Source of the DNA: Myxococcota bacterium
Lineage (GTDB): Bacteria; Myxococcota_A; Polyangia; Nannocystales; Nannocystaceae
Assembly (NCBI GenBank): GCA_039028615.1
Contig: JBCCHT010000011.1
Location: forward strand, 96,001 to 160,000
Direction of reading: 5' to 3'
DNA length: 64,000 bases
Within the stretch, counting starts at the first letter, position 1, and each line of letters begins with the position of its first letter. Below are positions 44,846 through 61,729 of this stretch, piece after piece. The position numbers and the translations under genes are program-made. The notes under the pieces were generated by a model. The model was not told where the DNA came from. It saw nothing but the letters and a program-made list of their open reading frames with translations, and did no database searches.

Positions 44846-45592
44846 ATGCGGCATTCCATCGTCTCGACCATTGCCATCGTTTTCGTCGCTGTGGGTTGCG
44901 GAAATTCGACGGACGTCAACGATGGCTCCCCCTCGAGTTCGACGAGGAGCACGTCGAACCAAACCACCAACGAAAACACGGGACGCCCGACCGTCCCGGG
45001 AACGAACCAGACCTCCACTTCGACCACCAATCCCGGACCCCAAACAGACGGCAGCACGACGAGCAAAGGCACCGCCGACGGCACCGGGCCCGAGGGCACG
45101 GGCGGCACGAGGGGCACCAGCGGCACGGACAGCACGGGCTCCGATTCGACTTCGACCACCGTCGACCCCTGCGATGCGGGTGACGGCACCGAGTTCATGG
45201 TCGATAACCTGGTGTCCGTCTGGTACGTGATCAACGGCGTCCAGAACCCGGACCTGAACCTCTACCGCGGGTGCACCTATACCTTCCACATCGACACGCC
45301 CAAGCACCCCTTTCTCATCAAGTCCGTGCAGAGCGAGAGCGCGATCGACACCTACGACGAAGGGGTAACGAACAACGGTACGAAGGTCGGCACCATCACC
45401 TGGGAGGTACCGACGGACGCCCCCGACACGCTCTACTACGTCTGCCAGTTTCACCTGCGGATGAGCGGTGCCTTCAACATCTCCACCCCGGAGTGGGGCG
45501 GTAGTAGTGGAGGAGGCAGCGAAAGCAGCGGCAGCAGCGACAGCGGCAACACCACCAGCGGCGGCAGCAGCAGCACCAGCAGCGGGACTTAG
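44846..45592 (+). CDS. Lipoprotein with Ser/Thr-rich linker and cupredoxin-like domain
   Basis: AVGC lipobox; [26 protein letters not shown] (C-x2-H-x2-M). Confidence 0.75.
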
Positions 45593-46869
45593 CGCAGGTC
45601 GGCGAGGGCCTGGGTGACCTGCTCGCGAATTTCCCCCGGAAACAGCGCTCGGTAGTGCACGAAGGCCTCCCGGCTGAGGCCGTGCATCACGGGCGAGGCG
45701 TCGAGCAGCCGCTGCAGCGTGCCGCGGCTCGACAGCACCATCAGCGCTTCGTCCTCGATGTAGGCCTCGATCTTCACCCGATCGACCCCGCCCGCGTACT
45801 CGGGCTCACAGCCCTGATCCCGCAGCACCTGATGCAGGCGCTCGCGCGCGAGCTCGGGATCGACGTCGGCCCGCAGCCGCAGGGTCTTGAACAGCCGCCG
45901 GTCGCGAAGGCGCCCCGCCAGGTCGCGCAGCACGTCGTCCTTGCTCTGCGCGTAGCTGCGAATGGCCGTCTGCAAGCCGGGATCGTCGAGCTCGAGGAAG
46001 GCGGTGGTCGACACCGAGTCGCCCCGCAGCAAGGCCTCGAGCGCGGGCGGAGTGCCGGGCTGCGGCCCCAGATCGTGCAGGCGGCTGAACAGCGCGCGCG
46101 AGACCGAGTCGGCCGCTCGCACCGCCTTGTGCAGATAGACCTGCCGATACATGTAGAGGCGATTGAGGAAGAACCCCTCCACCGCGGTGAGGCCCTTTTC
46201 TCCGTCGACGGCCAGGGTCGCCGCCGAGCCCCCGGGCGGCAGGTACAGCCGCAGCGCAGCCAGCAGCCAGTCGAGGTCGAGGATGCCGTAGCGCACACCC
46301 GTCATGTAGGAGTCGCGCAGCAGGTAGTCGCAGCGATCGACGTCGAAGGTCCCCGAGACCGCGCGTGCCAGGTGAGGGATGGGGCTGCGCCCGTGCACGA
46401 GCCCTTCGACCAGCGACGGCATCTGCGGATCGATGTCCGACAGCACCTGGTGCACCTCGCTGTGCGGGTCGAGCAAGATCGCCGAGGTCCACTCCTCGTG
46501 GGCCCGCGCCTCGGGCAAGACCGCCTCGAAGGTATGGCTGAACGGACCGTGCCCCACGTCGTGCAGCAGCGCCGCGGCCAGGGCCACCCGCGCCATGTCG
46601 TCATCGATCCGGTCGGAGGCGGGGATGTCCGAGGCCAGCCGCCGCACCCGGTCGAGGTACCGCTTCATGACGTGCGCCGAGCCCACCGCATGGGCGAACC
46701 GGGAATGCTCCGCCCCGGGGAAGGCGAGCGATGCGTGACCCAGGGCGCGAATCCGGCGGAGGCGCTGGACCTCACGGGTGTTCATCAGCCGCTCCACGAC
46801 GCCTTCGACCGGGCCCTCGAAGGAGATCAGGCCGTGGACGGGGTCGCGGAGGATCACGGGGCCTGTCAT
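45589..46869 (-). CDS. HD-domain phosphohydrolase (SAMHD1-like dNTP triphosphohydrolase family)
   Basis: [50 protein letters not shown]. Confidence 0.9.
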
Positions 46870-46972
46870 ACCTGGCCGCTCGGCCGCGGCCAACCGGGGC
46901 CAAACCGTGGTTCTTTTCGGTTCCCCAGACCCGTCGCAGGCCCGTGGTACGCTTGCCGCCGTTTCGGTCTCC

Positions 46973-49900
46973 ATGCACGCGTGTCCCAGCTGCGGCTCCG
47001 CGCTCGACGCGAGCCAGCCACTACCGCCGCATTGCCCCTATTGCGGAGCCTCCCTCGCCCCACCAGCCCCGTCGGATCTCGGCGCTCCCCCCAGCTTTGC
47101 CGGCACCCCCGGTGAGTCGGGCGCGGCGCCGATCTTCGTGCCGGCCGAGAGCCGCACCGATCTGCGGTCGCCGTCTTCGCTGGCTGCCCCTCGGAGGCGT
47201 CAACCACCTCCGCCCGCCCCCAAGGCCGGGGCGGTCACCGGTCCGCCGAGCATCGGGCTCGCCGACGGCAGCGATCGCCACAACGAGTTCGATCTAGGCG
47301 GAGACCCCAGCGGGATGGAACTCGCCTTCGGCGACGGTCCGGTCGCCGAACCCGAGGCGCCTCCCGGCATCTCCCTGTCCGCGGAGCCCACCGATCGCTT
47401 CTCCTCCGGGGCCTCGTTGTCGGATCCGCTCATGGATCTGCCCAGCCCCGTCGCCGAGGCTCGCGATCAGGGCATCGGTCGCCCCAAGGCTCCGCCGCTG
47501 CCGCCTCCCCCCGGGTTCAGCCCGCCCAAGCCTCCCCCTCCGCCCGCTCCGCCGGGCGCCGGGCTTCCGCCTCCCCCTCCCGCCGCGGGCTACTCCGACC
47601 CCGTCGCCGAAGAGCAGGACCACGGGCTCGGGTTCTCGGCCCCCGTCGCCGGGCAATCGGACCACGGCATCGATCTACCCAGCCCCGTCCAGAGCCCGCG
47701 CGACGATGGCATCGATCTGCCCAGTCCCGTCGCCGCCGAGGCCCGCGACCACGGCATCGACCTGCCCAGCCCCGTCCAGGGTGTCCGCGACGATGGCATC
47801 GACTTGCCCAGTCCGGTCCAGGCGGGAGCCGCGGACGACGGCAGTGCCTACTCGCTCGATCTCCCGGCGCCCATCGATACGGCCAACCGCGATCTCCCGG
47901 CCCCGGTCGATCTGTCCCTGCCGGTCACCGAGGGCGACGGGCTCGATCTGCCGATCCCCGCCGACCTCCCCGTGCCCAGCGCGGGGGGCCAAGAAGTTCA
48001 GCCCGCCGGGCAAGAGGTTCGCCCCGCCGGGCAGGAAGTGCGCCCTGCCGGGCAAGAGGTTCGCCCCGCCGGGCAAGAGGTTCGCCCCGCCGGGATGGAC
48101 GTGACGCCCAGGGGCTCCGGGGACGAGGTCGCACCGCACGACCTGCCCGGGCCCAAGACGAGCGATGCGCTCGTGCCCGACTTCGATGCCGTGGGCATGA
48201 CGCCCGACGTGCAAGCTGCGGCAGCGACCAGCGGCGTCGCGGCCCCGGCCGCACCGTCGACCGACAGCGACGCATTGCCGGACCCGGCGATGACCGCTCC
48301 GACCGCGACGCCGCGTGCCAAGCCGATCGCCGCGGCCAAGCCCGCCGTGTCGCGCGGCGTGCTGCTGCTCGGCGGAGGCTTGCTGCTGCTGGGTGCAGTG
48401 GGAGCCGCCGTCTTCTATTCGGGGCTGCTCGATCCCGAAGAGCCCGAGGTCTCCGCGGGTCGCGGCGCCGTCAAGCGTGGCGGCGGCAAGTCTGGAGACG
48501 GCAAGGGCACGCAGACCCCGGGGCCCAAGGGCGCCGCGGCCGAGCGCGACGCCACCGTACTGGCGAAGTTCTCCGTGCACACGCCGGCCTCCTATCTCGA
48601 GGCGCTCGCCGCCACGAACGAGGCGGGCGACGTGCTGGGCGCAGCCGAGGCCGCGTTCCTGCTGCACTACCACTACGGTCCCAACCCGGCCCTGGCCACG
48701 CCGGCCGCCAGCGCGTTGCAGGCCCATGCCAGCGACAAGGCGGGGTACGTCCAGCGCATCGTGGGGCTCGCCGCTCTCGCCGCGAAGAACCTCGAGGGCG
48801 CCGAAGCTTCGCTGTCCGACGACGAGCCGCGCTCTCGGCTCTACCGCGGCTGGCTGCGCCTGGCCCAGGAGCGACTCGACGACGCCAAGGCCGAAGCCGA
48901 TGCCGTCCTGGCCGCGAATGCCAACGACCAGTCGGCCAAGCACCTGTCCCTGGCGGTGGCGGCCGCGAAGGATCCCGCCGCCGCGCTGAGCGCCATCGAG
49001 GCCGCGACCAAGGCCAACCCCGAGCACGCCGGTCTGCAGGCGCTGCTCGCCCAAACCGCGGTCGCGACCGGGCAGCTCGCCGTCGCACGAACGGCCGTGG
49101 ACGCCATCGATCCCGCGGCCACCGACGACCCCGGGGTCCAGGCGTGGGCCCATGTCCAACGCGCCCGCGTGCAGCTCGCCCAGGGCGACTACGACGGTGC
49201 GCTGGTGAGCTTCGACCGGGCCCTCGAGCGCGTGCCCGACGACTCGGCCCTCGAGATCGAGCGGATCCACGTCTTGCTCGATGCCCGACGCTTCAACGAC
49301 GCCAGCAATGCCATCGCGAAGCTGGTCGCCGCGAACTCCAAAGACGCCGAGCTGTTGCTGCTGCAAGCCCGCGTGGCGGTGCAGAGCGGCGACGGTGACA
49401 TCGCCCTGGAGATCCTCGGCAAGCTCGCCGCCGCCATGCCCAAGGACGCCCGCGTGCAGATCGCCGTCGGCGACGTGCATGCCATGCGCCTGGAGATCGA
49501 CCAGGGCCAGACCGCCTTCGCGGCCGCGCGCACGCTCGACCCCACGGCCATCGCCGCCGCGACCGGCGAGGCGGTGCTGCTGGCCGACGCCAAGCAAAAG
49601 CCCAAGGCCCTGGCCGTGCTCGAAGAGGCCAAGGCCCTGGCCAGCAAGGACGGGCGCACCGACGACGTCGTGACCCTGCTGGTCGCGATCGCCAACCTCC
49701 ATCGCTCCACGGGCGACGCCGCCTCGGCGTTGCTCGCTCTCGACGAGGCGCTCACCGCCGCGCCGACCCACAACGATGCCCAGCTTTTGCGGGGCCTGCT
49801 GCGGCTCGACGAAGGTCGTACCGCCGAGGGTCGAACCGACCTCGAGGCGGTCTTCGAGCGCACGGGCGGCTATCTCGGCCTCGCCGGACCCTTGGGTCGC

Positions 49901-50758
49901 CTGTACGTCACCACGGGTAATTTCGGCGCGCTCGAGCGGCTCATCGAAGGTCGCATCCGCGGCGAGCAAACGGCAGACGACGTGCTCAATGCCGCCGTCC
50001 ACCTGCGCCTGCACCAAAATCGCATCGCCGACGCCCGGGCGCTCATCGACACCGCGCTGGCGCGTCACCCCTCGGACTGGGAAGCCCACATGCTCCTGGC
50101 CCAGGTGCTCATCGCCGAGGGTCGGGCCGCCGACGCCTTGGCGGCCATCGAGCGCGCTCGCCCGAGCCAGCCCCAGCCCACGCTCATGCTGCAGCGCGGC
50201 AAGGTCTTCGAGTTCAACGGCAAGCACCCCGAAGCCCTGCCCGAGTACCGTCGCGCGCTGACCATCCAGCCCGAGCTGCACGAGGCCCGGTTCCTCTACG
50301 GCCGCCTGCTCGCGCACAACGGTGCCAACAGCAAGGCCATCGCCGAGCTCCAGCAGGTCACCAAGGCCACCGAGGCCGCGTCCGCCCCCTGGTTCCCCGA
50401 GGTCTGGGTCGCCATGGCCCGCGCGCAGCAGGGCCTGGGCAAGTACGACGATGCCATCGCCAGCCTCAACGAGGCGACCACGCTCAATCCCAAGTTCGGC
50501 TACGCCTTCGCCGAGCAGGGCCGCTACCACGTGTTCCGCAGCAACCATGCGGCCGCGATCACGGCGCTGACCAAGGCCATCGACCTCGCCGCGCCCACCG
50601 ACCACTGGTACCCCGACGCGCTCATCAACCTGGCGCGAGCGCAGGTCAAGCAGGGCAAGAACGCGGCCGCCAAGGCCACGCTGCAGAAGTTCCTCGAGGC
50701 GGCGTCGTCGGAGCACGTCTCTCGGGCCGAGGCGCAGCGCCTGCTTCGCAGCCTCTAG
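46973..50758 (+). CDS. Zinc-ribbon + Pro-rich repeats + TM + long TPR protein
   Basis: CPSC..CPYC at N-terminus; DLPSPV repeats; TM VLLLGGGLLLLGAVGAAVFY; about 750 aa TPR region. Confidence 0.85.
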   Translation: MHACPSCGSALDASQPLPPHCPYCGASLAPPAPSDLGAPPSFAGTPGESGAAPIFVPAESRTDLRSPSSLAAPRRRQPPPPAPKAGAVTGPPSIGLADGSDRHNEFDLGGDPSGMELAFGDGPVAEPEAPPGISLSAEPTDRFSSGASLSDPLMDLPSPVAEARDQGIGRPKAPPLPPPPGFSPPKPPPPPAPPGAGLPPPPPAAGYSDPVAEEQDHGLGFSAPVAGQSDHGIDLPSPVQSPRDDGIDLPSPVAAEARDHGIDLPSPVQGVRDDGIDLPSPVQAGAADDGSAYSLDLPAPIDTANRDLPAPVDLSLPVTEGDGLDLPIPADLPVPSAGGQEVQPAGQEVRPAGQEVRPAGQEVRPAGQEVRPAGMDVTPRGSGDEVAPHDLPGPKTSDALVPDFDAVGMTPDVQAAAATSGVAAPAAPSTDSDALPDPAMTAPTATPRAKPIAAAKPAVSRGVLLLGGGLLLLGAVGAAVFYSGLLDPEEPEVSAGRGAVKRGGGKSGDGKGTQTPGPKGAAAERDATVLAKFSVHTPASYLEALAATNEAGDVLGAAEAAFLLHYHYGPNPALATPAASALQAHASDKAGYVQRIVGLAALAAKNLEGAEASLSDDEPRSRLYRGWLRLAQERLDDAKAEADAVLAANANDQSAKHLSLAVAAAKDPAAALSAIEAATKANPEHAGLQALLAQTAVATGQLAVARTAVDAIDPAATDDPGVQAWAHVQRARVQLAQGDYDGALVSFDRALERVPDDSALEIERIHVLLDARRFNDASNAIAKLVAANSKDAELLLLQARVAVQSGDGDIALEILGKLAAAMPKDARVQIAVGDVHAMRLEIDQGQTAFAAARTLDPTAIAAATGEAVLLADAKQKPKALAVLEEAKALASKDGRTDDVVTLLVAIANLHRSTGDAASALLALDEALTAAPTHNDAQLLRGLLRLDEGRTAEGRTDLEAVFERTGGYLGLAGPLGRLYVTTGNFGALERLIEGRIRGEQTADDVLNAAVHLRLHQNRIADARALIDTALARHPSDWEAHMLLAQVLIAEGRAADALAAIERARPSQPQPTLMLQRGKVFEFNGKHPEALPEYRRALTIQPELHEARFLYGRLLAHNGANSKAIAELQQVTKATEAASAPWFPEVWVAMARAQQGLGKYDDAIASLNEATTLNPKFGYAFAEQGRYHVFRSNHAAAITALTKAIDLAAPTDHWYPDALINLARAQVKQGKNAAAKATLQKFLEAASSEHVSRAEAQRLLRSL
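47987..48091 (+). repeat. Five tandem 21-bp repeats encoding GQEV(R/Q)PA
   Basis: GGGCAAGAGGTTCGCCCCGCC three times exactly plus two variants, in frame. Confidence 0.92.
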
Positions 50759-50784: not shown

Positions 50785-50826
50785 CTCGATTTCGTGCGCG
50801 CCCGCCCGGCTGCGCGCGAAATCGAG
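50785..50826. terminator. 15-bp-arm inverted repeat downstream of TPR gene
   Basis: CTCGATTTCGTGCGC ... GCGCGCGAAATCGAG (14/15, the mismatch is a G-U pair); no U-tract. Confidence 0.45.
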
Positions 50827-51006
50827 ACTCGTGCGGGTCACGGATGGGCCCCCGTGCGCCAGCTCACTATGTTTTTGAGAACTGTTTCCGAGGAAGCGAC
50901 CACTCCCTCGTAAGACTCGGTTTGGGGTCCGCCTAGGACAGATCAAGGGGCCAGCGCCAAGGCTCGAGGCATCGATATGCCCGCTCGCGCACCCCCCCGA
51001 GCCGCC

Positions 51007-51708
51007 ATGCCGAATGAACGACCCAGTCCCCATGTCGATGCCGACCTCGAGCAGCTCGCCGCGTGGCAACGACAGCGCGATCGAGACCCGACGCCCGACC
51101 CTCTCGACGACCTGGCCGTCACCGACGTCCCCGTGCTCGACCACGCCCACGTCGACGCGATGGTCGACTCGGTGGTCGGCGGGCCCCGAGCCAGCGGCGT
51201 CACCCGGCTGCTGCGGGCGGTGGCCTCTCCGCTGGGCACGGGCCTGGTCGCGGCCGCGGTCGCCGTCGCCATCGTTCAGTTCACCTCCGACGACAAACCG
51301 GCCGCCTACGGGGGGCCGCTCGCCGAAACGAACTACGAAGCTCACCTGCAGGCCAATGCGCTCGGGCCCGAGGATCGACTCGAGTTTTTCACCTACGACC
51401 GACTCGACGTCACCCTCGAGCCGAACCCGCCGCTGGACGAAGAAACCGGCGCCCTCGAGCTCCGCATCGGAGCGCAGAGCGTCGCGCTGGGCCACACCGT
51501 CTTGTCCGCCCCCCGGGCCGTCCGCCACCGCTACGGCGAGGTCCGCTTCGAAGAACGAATCTCCACCCTGTTCGACCTGCCGCCCGGCGAATGGGACATC
51601 ACCTATCTGCTCGGCCCCCCCGGTTCCTGCAGCGAGTGGCCAATGGCCCTTTCGTGCAAGCCCCGCGGCACCGACCGCGTAGTCATTAAGCCGGAACGCG
51701 ACACATAA
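51007..51708 (+). CDS. Single-TM protein, putative anti-sigma factor (paralog A)
   Basis: Short N-domain, TM LVAAAVAVAIVQF, C-domain ending LFDLPPGEW..LGPPGSC..C; 11 nt upstream of sigma gene; start 50977 or 51007. Confidence 0.6.
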   Translation: MPNERPSPHVDADLEQLAAWQRQRDRDPTPDPLDDLAVTDVPVLDHAHVDAMVDSVVGGPRASGVTRLLRAVASPLGTGLVAAAVAVAIVQFTSDDKPAAYGGPLAETNYEAHLQANALGPEDRLEFFTYDRLDVTLEPNPPLDEETGALELRIGAQSVALGHTVLSAPRAVRHRYGEVRFEERISTLFDLPPGEWDITYLLGPPGSCSEWPMALSCKPRGTDRVVIKPERDT

Positions 51709-51719
51709 CGAGTGCGATA

Positions 51720-52691
51720 ATGACCGTTCTCCACGCGATGAAGCCCCCACCGCCGTCCGTCACGCCGCGCCTCGTCGAGTCGGCGTTGGCGGGAGATCTC
51801 GAGGCACGCGAGATCTTGGGCGCCACGGTCTCCCGCGTGATTGCCCGCGTCACCCGTCCCCTGCGGTCGTCGCTCGAGCCGTCGCTGAGCAACGAGCTCC
51901 TCCTGGTGGTCTGGCGGCACCTGTGCGCGGACAACCTGCACCTCGTTCGCTTGTGGCACGAGTCGCCCGAGGACGACTTCGAACGCTACGTCGCCGGGCT
52001 CATCCACGACTACGTCCACCCGCTTCGTGTCCGCATGCCGCCCGGCCCCGGCATTCGCAGCGCCGACGTCGTCGCGCTGTCCTCGGGCTGGACCCGCGAG
52101 TCCATCGAGTTCGCCCTCGACAGCGAGACGGGTCCCAAGGACACCCTCGCCCGGCACATCTACACCACGGTTCATCGCTACGCCTATCAGATCCTCTGCC
52201 GACGCAAGCGCAGCGGAGCGAAAGACGAAGCGCAAGACATCGCACAGAGCCTGCTGTTCAAGCTCTTCGAAGCGCCGGGCCCCAAGGCCAACGCCACGCC
52301 GCAGCAGCGCGGCCGCCCCGGGTATCTGCTCCGGTGCTGGGACCCCTCGCGGGGACGAGCACTCGACAGCTACCTGTACATGGTCACGAACAACTTCATC
52401 AATCACAAAGCCCGCAAGAAGAACAGCATCGTCCTGTTCCCCGAGGCCGACGACGGCGCAGCGACGCCCGATCCCCGGAGCCTCGAGTACGAGATCGGCA
52501 GCCAGCTCGCGCTCGAGTCGGTGGTCGGCAGCCTCAGCGAGCGAGAGCGTCCGCTGCTCGAGGTCATCGGTAAACAGTGCACCCCCGAGGAGCTGGCCAA
52601 GCGACTCGGCGTCGACCGCAACACCATCTATCAACGGATACGACGGCTGAAGGAACGTCTCAAGAAGACCCGCGACGAGTTCTCGCGATAA
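51720..52691 (+). CDS. ECF-like sigma-70 factor with apparent tandem sigma2 domains
   Basis: DEAQDIAQSLLFKLF..LLRCWDPSRGRALDSYL (sigma2); LSERER..TPEELAKRLGVDRNTIYQRIRRLKERL (sigma4 HTH); N-terminal LVESALAGD..LCADNLHLVRLW..FERYV resembles a second sigma2. Confidence 0.8.
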   Translation: MTVLHAMKPPPPSVTPRLVESALAGDLEAREILGATVSRVIARVTRPLRSSLEPSLSNELLLVVWRHLCADNLHLVRLWHESPEDDFERYVAGLIHDYVHPLRVRMPPGPGIRSADVVALSSGWTRESIEFALDSETGPKDTLARHIYTTVHRYAYQILCRRKRSGAKDEAQDIAQSLLFKLFEAPGPKANATPQQRGRPGYLLRCWDPSRGRALDSYLYMVTNNFINHKARKKNSIVLFPEADDGAATPDPRSLEYEIGSQLALESVVGSLSERERPLLEVIGKQCTPEELAKRLGVDRNTIYQRIRRLKERLKKTRDEFSR

Positions 52692-52853
52692 CCATAGACA
52701 CTCGCGACAACCGAGCACGGGGGGAAGAAACGACGGCAGACCGTGCAACCGAGCAGTGCAATGTATATCCGCTCCATCCGCTCTCACGACGGCCATGGCT
52801 GGGTGCACGCGATCTTTCGCGAGGCGCCCTCGCTCCGCGCGTGCCGTGCCCGC

Positions 52854-53390
52854 ATGGCTCCCAAGGCCCGGGAACTGCTCGGTACGATCGTGGTGACCGT
52901 GCTCATGGCCTTGCTCGTCGCCATGGCCGGCTCTCCCCCGAAGCCGGCCCCCGGCCAGGCCACCATCGTGTCTCCCCTCGCCGACGACTCGCCGCCGCCG
53001 CCTCACGCGATGCGGATGCACCTGGCGGGGCTCGATGACCCCCATGGCGCGCACGAGGGCGAGATCATCACCGTCTCACCCCGCAGCTATATCGAGTTCG
53101 AGGTCGAGCACGACATCGATCCCTCGGATGCGGCCACCCTGGTGATCCTCGCCCGCAACATCTCCTCTCCCGGCCCCGCCGGAATCCACCAGGCGATCCC
53201 CCTGCCCACCGACGCCCTCGTGCTCGCCGACTATGGTTTTCGGTATCAGGGCCGCTTCGACGAGCTGTTCCCGCTGCCGCCTGGCCTGTGGCGGCTGCGC
53301 TTCCACGTGGGCCCCGCGGGTCGATGTACCGTCGATCACGTGACCGCATGCGAGGGCGTCGAGAAGATCTTGGAGGTCACCGCGTCATGA
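52854..53390 (+). CDS. Membrane-anchored protein, paralog B of 51007..51708
   Basis: TM LLGTIVVTVLMALLVAMA; FDELFPLPPGLW..VGPAGRC..C; ATGA overlap with CHAT gene; start could be 52761. Confidence 0.62.
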   Translation: MAPKARELLGTIVVTVLMALLVAMAGSPPKPAPGQATIVSPLADDSPPPPHAMRMHLAGLDDPHGAHEGEIITVSPRSYIEFEVEHDIDPSDAATLVILARNISSPGPAGIHQAIPLPTDALVLADYGFRYQGRFDELFPLPPGLWRLRFHVGPAGRCTVDHVTACEGVEKILEVTAS

Positions 53391-56293
53391 AGTGGCTGCA
53401 GCGGACCCTCAGCGTCGCCACGATCTCCGCGATCGCGACCTTTGCCGTCCTGCAGTACCAAAAGTGGCGGCAGTCCCCGGCCGACGCGACCCCGGACATC
53501 GAGTGGTCCGAGGCCTCTGCGTCCGAGCTGGTGCTGCGAGGCTGTGACCTCCGCACCACCGCGCGCGGCACCGAGTGCCTGCTCGACCCCGTGCGCGCCA
53601 GCGACTCGCAGATCGTCCAGACCTGGCTGCGCGGCGCATCCATCCGCGACAAGGGCCGCATCGAGGTGCTCGTCGACGACCAGCCCTTGCCCGCCGAGGA
53701 CCTCGAGCTCGAGGAAATCGACGACGGGCTCCGTCTTCGCATCCCCATGAAGGGGCGCCTGTTCGGTCGCGATCCCAGCCGCTTCGAGATCCGCGCCACG
53801 CTCCGCGACGGGGCGCATCGCTGGGTCACCATCGTGCGCGAGCGCAGGCTGGCGCCGAAGCTCGAGGACCTCGCTTCGCGCATCATCTCCACCTCCGACC
53901 GAGCCCTCCGGGGCGAGCTCGAGGCTCAGCTGGTCGGCCTGCTGCCCCAGCTCGAGGGCAGCGACCGCGTCTACGCCATCGACCGCCTCATCGGACCCAC
54001 GATGGGGCGCAACGAGTTCTCCCGCGCGGTGGAGCTCGCCGACGAAGGGGCCACGGCCGCCCAGGCGAGCGGAGAGCTGACCGTCGGGTGCCGATTCCTC
54101 CGCTTTGGTGTCTCGGTGCTGCTCGACGTCATCAACGACGCCGAGCAGGCCGACGCCTGGTCCACGCGGGCCCAGCACTGCACGGCCGCCACCGAAGACG
54201 AACTCGATCCCGGCCCCGGTCCCGACCCCGACTCTCGCTTCAAGCTCCCCTTCGTCCGCGGCTCGCTCGTCTGGGAGCAAGGCGACCCGGTTGCCGCCGC
54301 CCTGGCCTTCCAGCGCTCGGCTCGTTGGGCCCGGCGCCTCGGCGACCCGAATACCGAGCTCCGCGCCACCATGGGCCAAGCCTCGGCCATGGGTCACGTG
54401 GGGCGCTTCGACGAAGCCGCCGCGCTCATGGCCACCCTCAGCCGCAGCAGCATCGCCGACGACTCCTGCCAGGGCCGGGCGCTCGTGGACTTCAACCGGG
54501 CCAACTATGTCTACGCACATAGCCAGGCCTACGACACCGCGGATACCAAGGCCCGCGAGCTGCTCACCGAGACAGACGAGCTGCTCACCTCCGCGCTCGC
54601 CGTGTTCCTGCGCCAGGAGTGTCTCGAGCGTCGCCGGCTCGATCGCTCCCGTGCCTATCTCAACCGCGCGCTGGCCCGAGTGGCGCTGGGTCGCTTCGAA
54701 GACGCTCGACGCGACCTCGAGCAAGCCGAGCCCGAGGGCGACGAGGACCAAGTGGCCGCCGCCCTGCTGCACGTGAAGGTCGAGCTGGGGCTCGGCCAGT
54801 GGTCGAACGCCGAGTCTCGCCTGGCCCTGCTCCGCACGAAGATCCTCGAGACCTCGCAGGTCGGTGCCAACCTGCTCGGCGATACCGAGGTCGTCGCCGG
54901 CCGCCTCGCCGAGCACCGAGCCGACCTCCGTGCCGCCGCCGAGCACTACCGCCGGGCCGAAGCGCAGTTCGAGTCGGACATGGCCTCGTCGCAGTTCGGC
55001 CTCGTCGCCGATCGCCAGGCGGGTGCCCAGGCCGAAGCCGCCCAACGACTCGTGAGCGTGCTGCTGCGTACGGACGAGCCCGCCGCGGCCCTGTGTGCGG
55101 CCCGGGTGCTGCGGAGCCGTCCTCTGCGACTGATGCACCGCGCGGCCCGGCTCGTCCGCGAAGGCGAGCCCACCCTGAGCCCCCTCGAACGCCAGCTCGA
55201 GGCCGCCCGGGCCCACCACGACCAAAGCCACCACAAGCCGCCACAGCAGCGTGATGCTGCCGACCGCTACGTCCGCGATGCCAACGCCCGATACGAGCAG
55301 GCGCTCGCTCGGGCCACCGCCGGGCGTGCCGAGACCGAGATCGGCGCGCTGTGTGAAACCCTGCCCTCCCCGCAGCCGGACGAGACCTCGCTGCTGTACC
55401 ACCGCGATCACCTCGGGGCGTGGTGGCTGATGGCGTGGACCGCCGACGACCTACGCGTCGAGTCGCTGGGCAAGCTGTCCGGTCGAGAGGCTCCGGCCGT
55501 CCTCACCGAGCGGCTCCTCGAGCCCGCCGCGTCGATGCTGGGTGCCTCCACTCACGTTCGCGTGCTGGCTTCGGGCGCCTTGGAGTCGGTGCCCTTCGAG
55601 ACGCTCCCGTGGCGAGGCACCCCGCTCGAGCAGTCGCATACGGTTCGTCGTGGTCTCGATCTGCCCCCCGGCCCCGACCGCGAGGGAACAAATGCGGGTC
55701 CGATCGTGTTTGCCACCGGGCCCCGCCCCGAGAATGCGCTGCGCGGCACCGACAACTCCGACCTCGAACGAGCCCAGGAGTTCCTGTCGGATCTGCCGGG
55801 CACGCTCATCGCTCATCGCGGCCAGGTCGACGTCGACACGTTCCGGGCGTCCACCACGGGCGCATCTGTGCTGGTCTACGTCGGGCACCACGAGCCGGGC
55901 GATCGCCTCGATGGCACCCATGCCCTCCCGGGGCTCCAGCTCGGCCCGCACAGCGCGGCCGACCTCGACTCCATCCTCGCCATGCAGCCCGGCCCCGCCC
56001 ATGTCGTGCTGGTGACGTGCGAGGGCATCGACGACGACGCCTCGACCTTGTCCGCCGATCTGGGCTTGGTCTCGGCCTACGTGGCCGCCGGGTCCATCGA
56101 AGTGCTCGCCACCACCGAGAGCCTGCGCCCCGACGACGGGGCCGCGGTTGCCCGAGCGATCAGTCGACGACTCTCCGCCATGGACTCCATCGACCTCCCC
56201 CGGGCGCTCGCCGACGTGCGCCGCCGAGGCATCGAAGGCCACGGCTCGGGGGTGCCACTGGACCTCTCCAAGTTTCGCGTCGTGACTCGCTGA
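53387..56293 (+). CDS. TPR-CHAT (caspase-like, HetF family) protease with N-terminal signal/anchor
   Basis: N-terminal hydrophobic segment; TPR-like helices; CHAT motifs RLLEP, GALESVPFETL, VYVGHH (His), VVLVTCEG (Cys), GLVSAYVAAG..VLAT. Confidence 0.82.
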   Translation: MKWLQRTLSVATISAIATFAVLQYQKWRQSPADATPDIEWSEASASELVLRGCDLRTTARGTECLLDPVRASDSQIVQTWLRGASIRDKGRIEVLVDDQPLPAEDLELEEIDDGLRLRIPMKGRLFGRDPSRFEIRATLRDGAHRWVTIVRERRLAPKLEDLASRIISTSDRALRGELEAQLVGLLPQLEGSDRVYAIDRLIGPTMGRNEFSRAVELADEGATAAQASGELTVGCRFLRFGVSVLLDVINDAEQADAWSTRAQHCTAATEDELDPGPGPDPDSRFKLPFVRGSLVWEQGDPVAAALAFQRSARWARRLGDPNTELRATMGQASAMGHVGRFDEAAALMATLSRSSIADDSCQGRALVDFNRANYVYAHSQAYDTADTKARELLTETDELLTSALAVFLRQECLERRRLDRSRAYLNRALARVALGRFEDARRDLEQAEPEGDEDQVAAALLHVKVELGLGQWSNAESRLALLRTKILETSQVGANLLGDTEVVAGRLAEHRADLRAAAEHYRRAEAQFESDMASSQFGLVADRQAGAQAEAAQRLVSVLLRTDEPAAALCAARVLRSRPLRLMHRAARLVREGEPTLSPLERQLEAARAHHDQSHHKPPQQRDAADRYVRDANARYEQALARATAGRAETEIGALCETLPSPQPDETSLLYHRDHLGAWWLMAWTADDLRVESLGKLSGREAPAVLTERLLEPAASMLGASTHVRVLASGALESVPFETLPWRGTPLEQSHTVRRGLDLPPGPDREGTNAGPIVFATGPRPENALRGTDNSDLERAQEFLSDLPGTLIAHRGQVDVDTFRASTTGASVLVYVGHHEPGDRLDGTHALPGLQLGPHSAADLDSILAMQPGPAHVVLVTCEGIDDDASTLSADLGLVSAYVAAGSIEVLATTESLRPDDGAAVARAISRRLSAMDSIDLPRALADVRRRGIEGHGSGVPLDLSKFRVVTR

Positions 56294-56364
56294 GAACGAA
56301 TCGCGAAATAAATTGAATATTGGGGGGTAAGAATCGCGCGCCTCGTAGCCTACTAGGTGATGCG

Positions 56365-56742
56365 ATGACTACTCCGCTGCTCAACCTGTTCCCCATCAAC
56401 GCGGCACTGCTTGCCTCGCAAGAGACTCGCCGCCCCACCCTCGGTTCCATCGACTATGTCGTGGAAAACCGCGACAACCGGATCTACGTGTCCGACCTCG
56501 AGCTGTCCGCCGACCTGAAGGCCAAGCTCACCGGTCCGACCATCGTGACCGCATTCTTCACGCTCGGCCAATCCCGGACCGAGATCGACGGCGCCCTCCT
56601 GCAGGGTGAGCGCAATGCCTTCGAGCTCCGCCACAGCGGCGAGCTGGGCGAGCTCCAAGAGCTTCGCCTGTCCCCCGAGGGCGAAGACGGCTGGGCAGTG
56701 GTCCTGGTTCCCCGCCACCGTCTCGACGCTGAAGCCTCTTGA
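56365..56742 (+). CDS. Hypothetical protein
   Basis: RBS AGGTGA; coding-like codon bias; follows an AT-rich spacer and precedes a UUCG hairpin. Confidence 0.55.
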   Translation: MTTPLLNLFPINAALLASQETRRPTLGSIDYVVENRDNRIYVSDLELSADLKAKLTGPTIVTAFFTLGQSRTEIDGALLQGERNAFELRHSGELGELQELRLSPEGEDGWAVVLVPRHRLDAEAS

Positions 56743-56804
56743 TTCGTACTGCCCCCGACCACGAATCAATCACGAGCACGCTCATCGTCGAGAGCAGCGT
56801 CCAC

Positions 56805-56838
56805 GTCGGGTCGGCCCCTTTCGGGGGGTCGGCCCGAC
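56805..56838. terminator. UUCG-capped hairpin between convergent genes
   Basis: GTCGGGTCGGCCCCT TTCG GGGGGTCGGCCCGAC. Confidence 0.65.
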
Positions 56839-56856: not shown

Positions 56857-57186
56857 TCACTTCGCGGGCAGCGAACGCGCAAACTTCAGCCCGCGCTCGA
56901 TCCACGCCTTCAGGTCCTCGTCCGTCCGAAATCCTGGTTTCCCCACATAGACCATGCCCTTCATCGGGCGCTTGGTGAAATCCATCGGGCGCGCATGCGG
57001 CATGGCCAGCGCTTCCGCGTGCGCCTTGGGGCCCACCCGCACCATCAGCTCGTCCTTCACGATCCCGAAGGCCATGTTCCCCGAGGCCATGAAGGCCACC
57101 CCACCGAACATGTTCCGCTCCGTGATGCCCTTGCGGCGGGCCACCACCGTACGAATTCTCTCCGCCAACATCTCGTCGTACGCCAT
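56857..57186 (-). CDS. TfoX/Sxy N-terminal domain protein
   Basis: MAYDEMLAERIR, MFGGVAFM, LMVRVG, RPMKGMVYV, SLPAK. Confidence 0.88.
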   Translation of the reverse strand: MAYDEMLAERIRTVVARRKGITERNMFGGVAFMASGNMAFGIVKDELMVRVGPKAHAEALAMPHARPMDFTKRPMKGMVYVGKPGFRTDEDLKAWIERGLKFARSLPAK

Positions 57187-57362
57187 CGTCTGGTTCTCCT
57201 CACCCTCACGACGCGGCCGCCCCTCGCCGATCGACATCCAGTGTGCCGACTGCGTCAATCTCGGTCCATCGCCGGTATTGCGAGCGGCATGGAACACAGA
57301 TTCGAGACGTGAGACACCACGCGTAGGCTACGAGTCGCGGCCCCCTTGCTACCGTGGGCTCC

Positions 57363-59697: not shown

Positions 59698-59784
59698 GGA
59701 GGAGTGGCCGAGTGGTTGAAGGCGGCGGACTTGAAATCCGTTGTAGGGGCGACTCTACCGGGGGTTCGAATCCCTCCTCCTCCG
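59698..59784 (+). tRNA. tRNA-Ser (anticodon UGA), CCA not encoded
   Basis: Acceptor GGAGGAG/CTCCTCC, D-arm GCCGAGTGGTTGAAGGC, anticodon loop CTTGAAA, long variable arm, T-loop GGTTCGAATCC, discriminator G then CCC. Confidence 0.95.
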
Positions 59785-59963
59785 CCCTTCGTTCGCTTCG
59801 CTCCACTTCGGTTGGATGAGGAGGGCTTCAGGCGGCGGTTGGACCCCGGAGGGGTCCGCCCTTAGGCTCGAATCCCTCTGCGAAAGGGCTTGGTGGTTGT
59901 GGCGGCTTGGGGGGCCGGAGCCTGGGTGGTGGCGGTTGGTCGTTGGGGGGGTACAAAGGGGGT

Positions 59964-60644
59964 GTGACGACGTGGCCTCCGGAGTCGGTGCATGGGTTCG
60001 ATGGGTGGGCGGCTGTCTTTACCGATGCGGTGGGGTCGACGGAGGCTCTGATTTCGAACGATGGGGCCAGGGTGCACTTGAGGGTGCTGGGGGTGAGGTT
60101 TGCGGGGGCGTGGTTGGACGACTTTGCGCCCGTGGGGAACGAACCGGTGCCTGGTCGCTTGCGGCTGCATCGAGGGGACCTTTGCGACTATAGGCTCGAG
60201 TTTCGAGTGCCGATGACCGTCCGCGAGGGGGCTGACGATGTCGCGACGGCGCTCGATGTGTGTGTCGAACTGGGGCCTCCGACCGAGCGTGGGGGGCTCT
60301 CCCATGAGTGGGTGCAGCTACGTTTGTCGTTCGATGGGGCGGAGGAGTACACGACGAGGCGGCATGACTTGTTCGAGACTGCGTTGGATGAAGTGCGAGA
60401 ACATCTCGGTGCGGGGTCCCTACTGAAGTGCTGCTTTGGTTGTGATTTCTCGGACTATTCGCCGTACGGGAACGGGATGTTTGGGACGTTGTATTGCTTT
60501 CGAACGGCCAAGGAGCAGTATCGGAGGGTCGTTGGTAAGGATGAGATCTTCGAGCTTTGGGATGAAGCGGCGGGGGCGGTGCAGGAGACGTGGCTGTGCG
60601 AGGAGTGGGAAGCACGAGCGGCGAACCGAGGCTATCGAGGGTGA
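59964..60644 (+). CDS. DUF6304-like hypothetical protein
   Basis: CCFGCDFSDYSPYGNGMFG..CFR, VQETWLC, C-terminal GYRG; atypical G/T-rich codons; start uncertain. Confidence 0.65.
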   Translation: MTTWPPESVHGFDGWAAVFTDAVGSTEALISNDGARVHLRVLGVRFAGAWLDDFAPVGNEPVPGRLRLHRGDLCDYRLEFRVPMTVREGADDVATALDVCVELGPPTERGGLSHEWVQLRLSFDGAEEYTTRRHDLFETALDEVREHLGAGSLLKCCFGCDFSDYSPYGNGMFGTLYCFRTAKEQYRRVVGKDEIFELWDEAAGAVQETWLCEEWEARAANRGYRG

Positions 60645-60688
60645 AGTAAGCGAGGCGAGTGCCGTCTCGTGCAGCAAGCGGGGCGAGC

Positions 60689-61729
60689 CTAGAGGTCGTC
60701 GAGGTACTCGAGCACGAGTTGGATGCCCTCGTCGTGAAGGAGGGTGGTTCCGAGGTAGGGCATGTCGCCGTCCTGGAGCTGTCGAGCGACTCGGTCTCGT
60801 CGGTCGTCGAGGCCGGTCTGCTCGACGGGTGTCGAGTAGCGGAAGTCGAGGTCGCGTTTGGATGCTCGATCCCAGCGCCCCGGGCTGTGGCAGTGGGCAC
60901 AGTTGATGTCGAGGTAGGCGCGTGCGCGCTCGGTCAGGGACTCGGTGTCGTCTTTGTAGTTGGGGATGGTGGCGACCGATCCGTCATCGACTCTGCTGAG
61001 GACGCCTTCGGCTTGAAAGTACGCCAGCTGGTTGACGTCGTTGCCCTCGCGCTCGACGAATCGGTTCAGGTTGCGAGGCGTGGGGCCGATGAACACGGCG
61101 GACTCGTTCGCCTGATGGCAGGTCACGCACTCGCCCTCGTGCGGGACGACATAGTCCGTGGTGCGAGGTTGGCCGACCCGGTCGGTCCACGAAACGGCCG
61201 TGGTGGTCCCCTCCAGAAGCAGCGTGGCGTCGGTTTGTTCCGCATTCCACAGGTAGGTCGCGGCGTTCCAAAGACCAGCGGACTTGACCAGGAGCCGGGT
61301 CTCGATGACCCGCACTGGCGCGGTAGCGTCGCGCATGTCGGACGGGTAGTAGAAGGTCTTCACGAGGACTGCCCCGTCCGGGAATTCCAGCTCTCCATCG
61401 TCCGTCAGCGTCATCGTCGTGCCTTCGGGGACCCTCAGGAGGCGCTGCTTGTAGGCATAGTCCGTGAACAGCTCCGAAGAGAGTTCGTACGGGAGCGCGC
61501 GCTCGGCCGGCTGAAGTGATGCCATTGGCTCTTCGTAGAGCGCGTAGGCGGAAAGCCTCTCTGGAAAGGGCTCGGTCCGCGGGATGTCGAAGTCGAGGTC
61601 GTAGGGGTCGGGCTCGAAGGTTTCCTGGCCGCACCCCGACCCGACCGCCAGCAGAGAGACGACGGCGATGACCGCGCGCAGGTGTCCACGGTGGCTCCGT
61701 CCCCTGCGGTCGTGTCGATTCGATTCCAT
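60689..61729 (-). CDS. Diheme c-type cytochrome lipoprotein (SO2930-like)
   Basis: GSGC lipobox; LFTDYAYKQR, VKTFYY, IETRLL; two CXXCH motifs (CVTCH, CAHCH). Confidence 0.85.
   Translation of the reverse strand: MESNRHDRRGRSHRGHLRAVIAVVSLLAVGSGCGQETFEPDPYDLDFDIPRTEPFPERLSAYALYEEPMASLQPAERALPYELSSELFTDYAYKQRLLRVPEGTTMTLTDDGELEFPDGAVLVKTFYYPSDMRDATAPVRVIETRLLVKSAGLWNAATYLWNAEQTDATLLLEGTTTAVSWTDRVGQPRTTDYVVPHEGECVTCHQANESAVFIGPTPRNLNRFVEREGNDVNQLAYFQAEGVLSRVDDGSVATIPNYKDDTESLTERARAYLDINCAHCHSPGRWDRASKRDLDFRYSTPVEQTGLDDRRDRVARQLQDGDMPYLGTTLLHDEGIQLVLEYLDDL

Follow-up and report, generated by a model that had tools for sequence, protein, structure and literature searches.

Five open reading frames (ORFs) on the + strand at positions 51007-56742 of a 64,000-nucleotide stretch of a Myxococcota genome (contig JBCCHT010000011.1, positions 96,001 to 160,000; the whole stretch is termed the window) encode a membrane protein (A), a sigma factor of the extracytoplasmic function (ECF) class, a second membrane protein (B), a protease of the tetratricopeptide repeat (TPR)-CHAT type and a small orphan protein. 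The locus is real and conserved. It represents a divergent form of a cassette with three parts (ECF sigma, A-family protein and TPR-CHAT protease), of which the host genome (12.27 Mb, 94 contigs) carries 12 copies: this one and 11 others, one of them cut by a contig end. Distinctive here are the twin A-family arrangement, a doubled sigma region 2, the matched loss of an Arg signature and a two-site promoter motif.

A point of reference is DdvA/DdvS of Myxococcus xanthus, with an ECF sigma, and a single-pass anti-sigma factor and TPR-CHAT in one chain (PMC11506125, PMC6061681; PDB 8ROT, 8RW5; statements about published systems follow the accessible portions of the papers cited). A split switch of this type has an even chance of operating in the present copy, and a somewhat better than even one in relatives that have the Arg signature. 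A would hold sigma at the membrane until, on a signal, the exported protease would cut a loop in the outer domain of A; a site-2 (M50) protease, for which the host genome has 5 gene matches, would complete release, and the freed sigma would transcribe from two GTAAGA-N16-CCTA sites, one before A and one before the small gene. B, translationally coupled to the protease, would dock on or restrain it. The topology, the binding of sigma by A, the cleavage and the site-2 step are ones that we infer, and the signal is, at a guess, a peptide or protein of the envelope to which the protease binds through its TPR or beta domain.

The cassette and its proteins

Linkage of the three parts is extensive. 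In a sample of genomes, 15 of 24 from the family had the protease, against 0 of 16 others. From 55 CHAT matches in relatives 53 regions were fetched, with the A family in 44, sigma in 45 and both in 43, and together with natural fusions this bears out the conserved neighbourhood supposed in a preliminary description of the locus. For the reverse test 40 regions were fetched from 58 outside A-family matches, and the CHAT family is present in 30. The A family alone as query has matches phylum-wide in 31 of 401 genomes, and the A-family/TPR-CHAT family, which spans the phylum, reaches Acidobacteriota (Thermoanaerobaculia), where two of three loci have sigma, A family, CHAT and a subtilase and the third is cut short.

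A-family and TPR-CHAT sequences are fused in 10 of 158 family proteins, and also at locus L057 in a DdvA-like chain, in the order N-domain, membrane helix, outer domain, TPR-CHAT; and the CHAT gene, though it diverges from sigma and A in several cassettes, is still linked there. The in-frame fusions and the linkage of divergent CHAT genes tell against the protease being an output of sigma, i.e. an exported enzyme whose substrates are foreign proteins or others of the envelope, with A inactivated otherwise, as does the match of loop and pocket dealt with below. Pertinent on the other side are the position of the protease gene downstream of predicted promoter 1 in an apparent single transcript, a second exported protease, an S8 subtilase, encoded in 23 of the 53 relative regions (this copy has none), and the existence of A-family genes with no protease. 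An output role is on balance rather unlikely.

One other species (genome G005) has the same gene order, A, long sigma, short B, CHAT; its sigma, B and protease are the best matches of the window proteins and its A is the best full-length match. This twin-A-family form is found in 2 of 73 family genomes. Such rarity, a small gene with no homologues, a long branch and the weakest CHAT score in the genome are what would be expected of a decaying tandem duplication, with the extra region 2 and B as leftovers and the switch perhaps dead. That, though, is very unlikely given that there are no stops or frameshifts, that the proportion of G or C at third codon positions (GC3) is of coding type in all five ORFs (0.82-0.90), and that G005 keeps the order, the truncation of B, the long sigma and the promoter motif while its four proteins are only ~25% identical to those of the window. 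(One assembled contig of the probable source run is identical over the locus, and is not independent evidence.)

Several variants among the cassettes are recorded as such. In the fusions (L057:8017-11500 in genome G002, P0057, P0089, P0094, P0111, P0126, P0138, P0141, P0145, P0157) TPR-CHAT has no signal peptide of its own, and the loop-Arg pattern is matched in 8 of 9. The S8 subtilase is a frequent fourth member (L002, L003, L007, L009, L014), echoing ECF54. L105, L109, L111, L112, L117 and L125 pair a sigma with an A-family gene and have no adjacent CHAT despite complete flanks, no search for a distant partner having been made, and in L067, L119, L123, L135 and L160 the CHAT gene is in two or more frames, from assembly error or decay. 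The host genome has an additional CHAT fragment at a contig end and, beside another CHAT cassette (G000:C1:372061-375178), a cluster of small similar genes, one with a match to RebB (R-body type). At L007:8825-11012, divergent from the cassette sigma and before a cupin gene, is a 72-aa ORF with a leader-like N-terminus, which we take to be a possible peptide precursor.

In A-family proteins a single membrane helix joins a cytoplasmic domain of ~95 residues to a beta-rich outer domain. In A itself (51007..51708, +, 233 aa) an N-terminal domain of ~70 aa precedes a membrane helix at 72-90 and a beta-rich outer domain with Cys208/Cys217, and in B (52854..53390, +; possible starts 52743, 52761 and 52854, stop fixed at 53390) a membrane helix is followed by an outer domain with a Cys pair. 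Each has one strongly hydrophobic 19-mer (Kyte-Doolittle hydropathy, KD, 2.11 in A and 2.49 in B) with basic residues preceding it, in line with their earlier listing as transmembrane proteins. A profile built from 11 paralogues, with A and B left out, matches A (E 3.5e-12) and B (E 2.5e-6), and over 107,593 ORFs it finds only its 11 members, A, B and one weak match that also adjoins a sigma and a CHAT gene. A and B are, on these profile matches, paralogues in one unnamed membrane-protein family. Neither has a match in NCBIfam or PADLOC; the outer-domain profile has none in PDB or Pfam, with 1 chance Pfam match in 48 outer domains, and an Atlas lead to DUF4384 (33% of one cluster) was not confirmed.

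A is a predicted anti-sigma factor, the family being read in this way from its position after the sigma gene, from the zinc anti-sigma motif HxxxCxxC in 4 other loci and one fusion (it is in 0 of 52 profiled N-domains), and from zf-HC2 as an Atlas neighbour, on 18% of members. The only Cys residues of A are at 208 and 217, so it has no CHCC zinc domain. The preliminary description had paired A and B as anti-sigma-like proteins, which does not hold for B: a profile test of the three frames upstream gave no match to the family's cytoplasmic domain, so that B is not an equal anti-sigma factor. (The same search found no frameshifted anti-sigma domain 5′ of B.) B is most likely not a second anti-sigma factor but a membrane-tethered partner of the protease, docking on it or restraining it. 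RseB has a guarding role in the DegS/RseA/RseB/RseP scheme, and B could act alike.

The sigma gene (51720..52691, +; start 51720 or 51738) encodes a protein that passes TIGR02937 (50.9 bits vs a cut-off of 42.9), as befits the ECF-like sigma factor proposed at the outset, with Pfam region 2 and region 4 matches just below cut-off; the CASP-sigma model NF041236 gives it 19.3, where the cut-off is 100. A full region 2 and region 4 (residues 121-322) follow a degenerate region-2-like domain (residues 7-92) that aligns (E 1e-5) to a profile made from 89 cassette sigmas, at its positions 4-96, and region 2 is therefore taken to be doubled with its first copy degenerate; direct alignment of the two copies (E 0.009 over 24 residues) was uninformative and the profile test was used instead. 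In 73 family genomes, matches that reach the sigma N-terminus come only from G005 and one orphan locus of the host genome, and the N-domains of these two meet the profile weakly (E 0.14 and 0.013); a search of the protein set with sigma returned only itself. The accessible ECF classification literature makes no mention of a doubled region 2 or of an inhibitor paralogue lacking a sigma-binding domain. The doubling, the dozen paralogues and the promoter motif were all overlooked in the preliminary description. A second sigma with doubled region 2 (G000:C25:39212-40117; L013:9212-10114), with no A-family or CHAT gene, closes a run of kinase-TPR and ECF genes, and three more orphan sigmas of the same clade are at C44, C53 and C8 of the host genome.

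The protease gene (53387..56293, +, 968 aa) has its ATG (53387) overlapping the TGA of B as ATGA. Its product was modelled from an 82-row alignment with a predicted local distance difference test score (pLDDT) of 86.6 and a predicted template modelling score (pTM) of 0.87, residues 841-845 being below 50 (a single-sequence fold, pLDDT 41, was discarded). The model has an N-terminal helix, a beta domain (48-152), a TPR array, a long helical hairpin and a separase-like CHAT module (666-967). Foldseek ranks DdvA best (E 1.2e-12), then Csx29 and separase. VIA gives Z 26.1 with Csx29 (root-mean-square deviation, rmsd, 9.7; 511 aligned), Z 22.0 with DdvA (rmsd 6.9; 548 aligned) and Z 20.2 with separase 5fc2 (rmsd 3.4 A over 274 residues of the protease domain), the large rmsd values arising over the repeats. 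Though phmmer with the protease finds nothing in PDB, the protease-family profile has DdvA as its top PDB match (E 2.8e-12), with both His and Cys aligned to those of DdvA. PF12770 is marginal: hmmscan reports no match, and the genome search gives 25.9 bits (cut-off 24), the lowest score among its 25 matches. The CHAT assignment, which the preliminary description had also made, therefore rests on fold and alignment, and the modelled protein is of the caspase/separase type with His/Cys dyad residues. By alignment with the family, the catalytic residues are His834 (VGHH; 55886..55888, +) and Cys878 (VTCEG; 56018..56020, +). The five same-strand genes, the ATGA coupling, the His and Cys and the hairpins at both ends are all in the sequence as originally reported.

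Hydropathy, charge, a Cys pair and the fusions favour export of the protease to the same, outer, side of the membrane as its predicted targets, an arrangement that the switch as first proposed had needed. Of 109 family proteases with a full N-terminus, 95 have it hydrophobic and 56 have a lipobox-like Cys, and Cys53/Cys64 of the N-terminal beta domain are invariant (82/82). The N-terminal hydrophobic 19-mer of the window protease (KD 1.43) is weaker than those of A and B, and there is no lipobox.

Candidate cut site and protease pocket

Of 78 outer domains, 65 carry an Arg, and 2 a Lys, in a loop ~25-35 residues beyond the membrane. Covariation was assessed in 76 cognate pairs of A-family protein and protease. 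The best-covarying protease columns are a Glu in the helix after the first catalytic strand (64/67 vs 1/9) and an Asp 37 residues past the Cys (58/67 vs 0/9). Both fall within the two regions from which MALT1 and gingipain, also of clan CD, form their Arg pocket (PMC4357240), and separase D2151 is a counterpart in the Arg-pocket region (PMC9729208). Most relatives probably cut after the conserved Arg, while the pairing of Arg loop and acidic pocket is suggestive only. In A, residues 111-122 (51337..51372, +) align with this loop and form the candidate cut site, with Gln115 at the Arg column and Leu119-Gly120 as an alternative. The nine exceptions, on both sides of the pairing, include this copy, three proteases that lack the His and a clade with Leu in the loop. 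With both Arg loop and acidic pocket lost, this copy would be either re-specified or catalytically weak; that it has a different cleavage specificity is probable.

Catalysis may of course be dispensable here. TPR-CHAT would then be a co-receptor or shield: bound to A (and B), it would keep a housekeeping protease from acting until displaced by a ligand. Relevant to this are relatives in which the His is lost and the protease is otherwise intact beside sigma and A-family genes (3/66, all with non-Arg partners), the unusual pocket of this copy, and DdvA, whose bulky domain protects against RseP and whose dyad mutants still repress (PMC11506125). That His834 and Cys878 are retained both in this copy and in its G005 orthologue, which is 25% identical, points the other way, as does the family at large, with the dyad kept in 63 of 66 CHAT domains (Cys 66/66, His 63/66), and a shield is considered unlikely but not remote. 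The cassettes that lack the His and retain the Cys are L047:8018-12404 (G005), L077 (G004) and L088 (G002), the first of which directly follows the orthologue of the window locus.

Against proteolysis of A by the protease, in this copy or at large, a number of points have to be set. On the tree (FastTree on the non-CHAT part) the non-basic loop state amounts to 3 changes, i.e. 1 to 3 independent pairs, which is not significant, and other protease columns show the same Arg/non-Arg split. The copy in question is on the long branch mentioned above and has no Arg in A or B. Its acidic columns hold Phe799 and Pro915, with Glu798 and Asp916 one residue away, so that loss of the pocket is alignment-dependent. 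This copy alone among 63 relatives bearing the His has a second one, His835, directly after it, and in three relatives the His is replaced by Phe or Thr with the protease otherwise retained. The N-terminal domain of A matches the family weakly (E 0.05) and is without the zinc motif. With respect to export, the hydrophobic helix of the protease is modest and has basic residues after it. The A family is missing from 9 of the 53 CHAT regions, and CHAT from 10 of the 40 A-family regions (4 at contig ends, 6 well flanked). No CHAT linked to an anti-sigma factor is known to act in proteolysis, and DdvA dyad mutants behave as wild type in unperturbed cells (PMC11506125).

A joint reading of these features would have a dozen parallel trans-envelope switches per cell, each with its own exported caspase-like site-1 protease and insulated from the others by matched changes of a single loop residue and of the pocket, the present copy being a double-locked non-Arg cutter with a two-region-2 sigma, a two-promoter regulon and, in B, a sigma-free decoy restraining the protease as securin does separase. 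In its entirety this is unlikely to be correct. From a practical perspective, the split form offers two separable proteins, a predicted cut loop, natural Arg/non-Arg variants and ones lacking the His, and a predicted two-site reporter promoter; with separable parts, an in vitro test of a caspase-like enzyme as site-1 protease becomes feasible.

Promoter motif, small gene and surroundings

GTAAGA-N16-CCTA is present at 50910..50935 (+), 72 nt before A, and at 56327..56352 (+), ending 13 nt before the ATG of the small gene, and these predicted ECF promoters 1 and 2 are its only 2 matches in the 12.27 Mb; 13 other spacings of the same motif have 0-1 matches each. G005 has 1 match, before the orthologous A. 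Random upstream trios share any such motif in 2 of 3000 draws and random pairs in 375 of 3000, so the weight of the motif rests on the second species. Some caution is in order, as the motif was defined from its own three sites, chosen out of six regions, among five genomes it is also found inside an unrelated gene of G004, and its backwards control has 0-5 matches per genome. A common GTAA motif for the other cassettes was searched for and none was found, and sigma-70 promoter and terminator scans of the locus gave nothing exceeding chance. The motif is predicted to be the promoter of this sigma.

The small gene (56365..56742, +) encodes 125 aa with no Cys and no clear signal peptide. No relative was found for it in searches of the protein set, the Atlas and 72 family genomes, and the ORF after the G005 protease does not match it. 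Tied to the module by the motif, it is a likely target of sigma, and this suggests a very small regulon, made up of the cassette plus this orphan. A two-codon mini-ORF (Met-Arg-stop; 56360-56368) sits right where the transcript is predicted to start, and its stop overlaps the small gene ATG.

Two strong hairpins, each more stable than every one of 200 shuffles (0/200), are near the ends of the locus. Hairpin 1 (50785..50826, +; z -3.6) is GC-rich, single copy in the genome and 3′ of an upstream TPR gene, where it serves to mark a boundary, and hairpin 2 (56805..56838; z -5.6) is between the small gene and a convergent tfoX gene. Neither scores as an intrinsic terminator, U tracts being absent, and in a genome search for repeated elements both proved single copy. 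In view of these positions and the lack of a terminator score, the hairpins may not belong to the module and could instead close the genes on either side of it. A weak third is at 56739-56769 (5/200 shuffles). The upstream TPR gene (46778-50758) has Pro-rich tandem repeats of 42 nt and 21 nt, and its large product combines a zinc ribbon at the N-terminus with a single membrane helix and many TPRs; before this gene is one for an HD-domain phosphohydrolase (45589-46974). The convergent gene (56857-57237) is TfoX_N, and at 59698-61729, beyond a tRNA gene, the GC skew shifts and GC is lower. Rfam finds one tRNA only in window positions 40000-64000.

Whether the purpose is defence, one of the roles raised in the preliminary description, is a separate matter from mechanism. 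An anti-phage switch like Craspase or DdvA, responding to a phage protein in the envelope, would be compatible with the split switch favoured here, and both characterised relatives act in defence. The surroundings offer nothing that points to it. The 48 window proteins include no Cas protein (only generic kinase, AAA, HEAT and HTH matches), and the 64 kb have no CBASS and no CRISPR-like array, so that the locus is CRISPR-free, as had been stated. Pfam on 99 neighbours in 16 own-genome regions yields kinases, subtilases and unknown proteins and no named defence family. These results, and a predicted regulon of the cassette and one orphan gene, make an anti-phage function rather improbable.

Comparison with known systems

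The preliminary description called CHAT/ECF/anti-sigma neighbourhoods uncharacterised, which overstates the case given DdvA/DdvS (PMC11506125, PMC6061681) and the CHAT and subtilase described for ECF54. It took Craspase as its model, and by profile and Foldseek DdvA ranks closest. For the split A-family/TPR-CHAT family itself no description was found in the literature, though subscription papers or supplements could hold one, and the caspase/ECF systems in the accessible text of PMC8195603 are other systems, not this one.

In ECF54 of Actinobacteria an ECF sigma is beside TPR-CHAT and a subtilase, and proteolytic control is proposed (PMC7826278, PMC8999054). As accessible, it is described without an anti-sigma factor and with a carboxypeptidase-regulatory-like gene at +1, whereas here there is an A-family membrane protein of no Pfam family; the phyla differ, and this copy has no subtilase. 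Two-step cutting of a membrane anti-sigma factor would be shared with DegS/RseA/RseB/RseP (PMC11506125, PMC10028731), though here each cassette would have its own dedicated first protease, a cysteine protease of clan CD and not an HtrA serine protease.

In type III-E Craspase, Csx29 cuts the sigma inhibitor Csx30 in trans in the cytoplasm (PMC10028731, PMC9729208). The likeness is in the TPR-CHAT fold, in the proposed trans action on a separate sigma inhibitor and in a non-Arg specificity (after Met or Leu in Craspase; PMC10028731, PMC9729208), which is probable here. In contrast, the window has no Cas7-11, CRISPR RNA (crRNA) or array and no Csx30 match, and Craspase is soluble and RNA-triggered, whereas the present protease is predicted to be membrane-bound and outside.

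With DdvA/DdvS there are in common an ECF sigma, a single-pass membrane inhibitor (predicted here), a TPR-CHAT of separase-type fold with a His/Cys dyad, and a promoter, likewise predicted here, starting GTAA (the DdvS motif, autoregulated, is GTAA-n16-CGT; PMC6061681), though with GTAAGA-N16-CCTA here. Release of sigma by CHAT first and RseP second is a proposal of the DdvA authors, for whom cleavage by its periplasmic CHAT becomes testable only once the signal is found; DdvA minus TPR-CHAT is removed by RseP (PMC11506125). The locus departs from DdvA/DdvS in several respects: the protease has a gene of its own and carries a beta domain at its N-terminus; A has an additional beta-rich outer domain and lacks the CHCC zinc domain; a further A-family gene, truncated, is present; region 2 of sigma is doubled; and there are 12 cassettes per genome vs three DdvA-like proteins. 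In addition, DdvA/DdvS controls a CBASS/CRISPR island and there is no counterpart of that here. By defining features the locus belongs to none of DdvA/DdvS, Craspase and ECF54. It would work most like DdvA, which is the closest model, Craspase being a weaker analogy.

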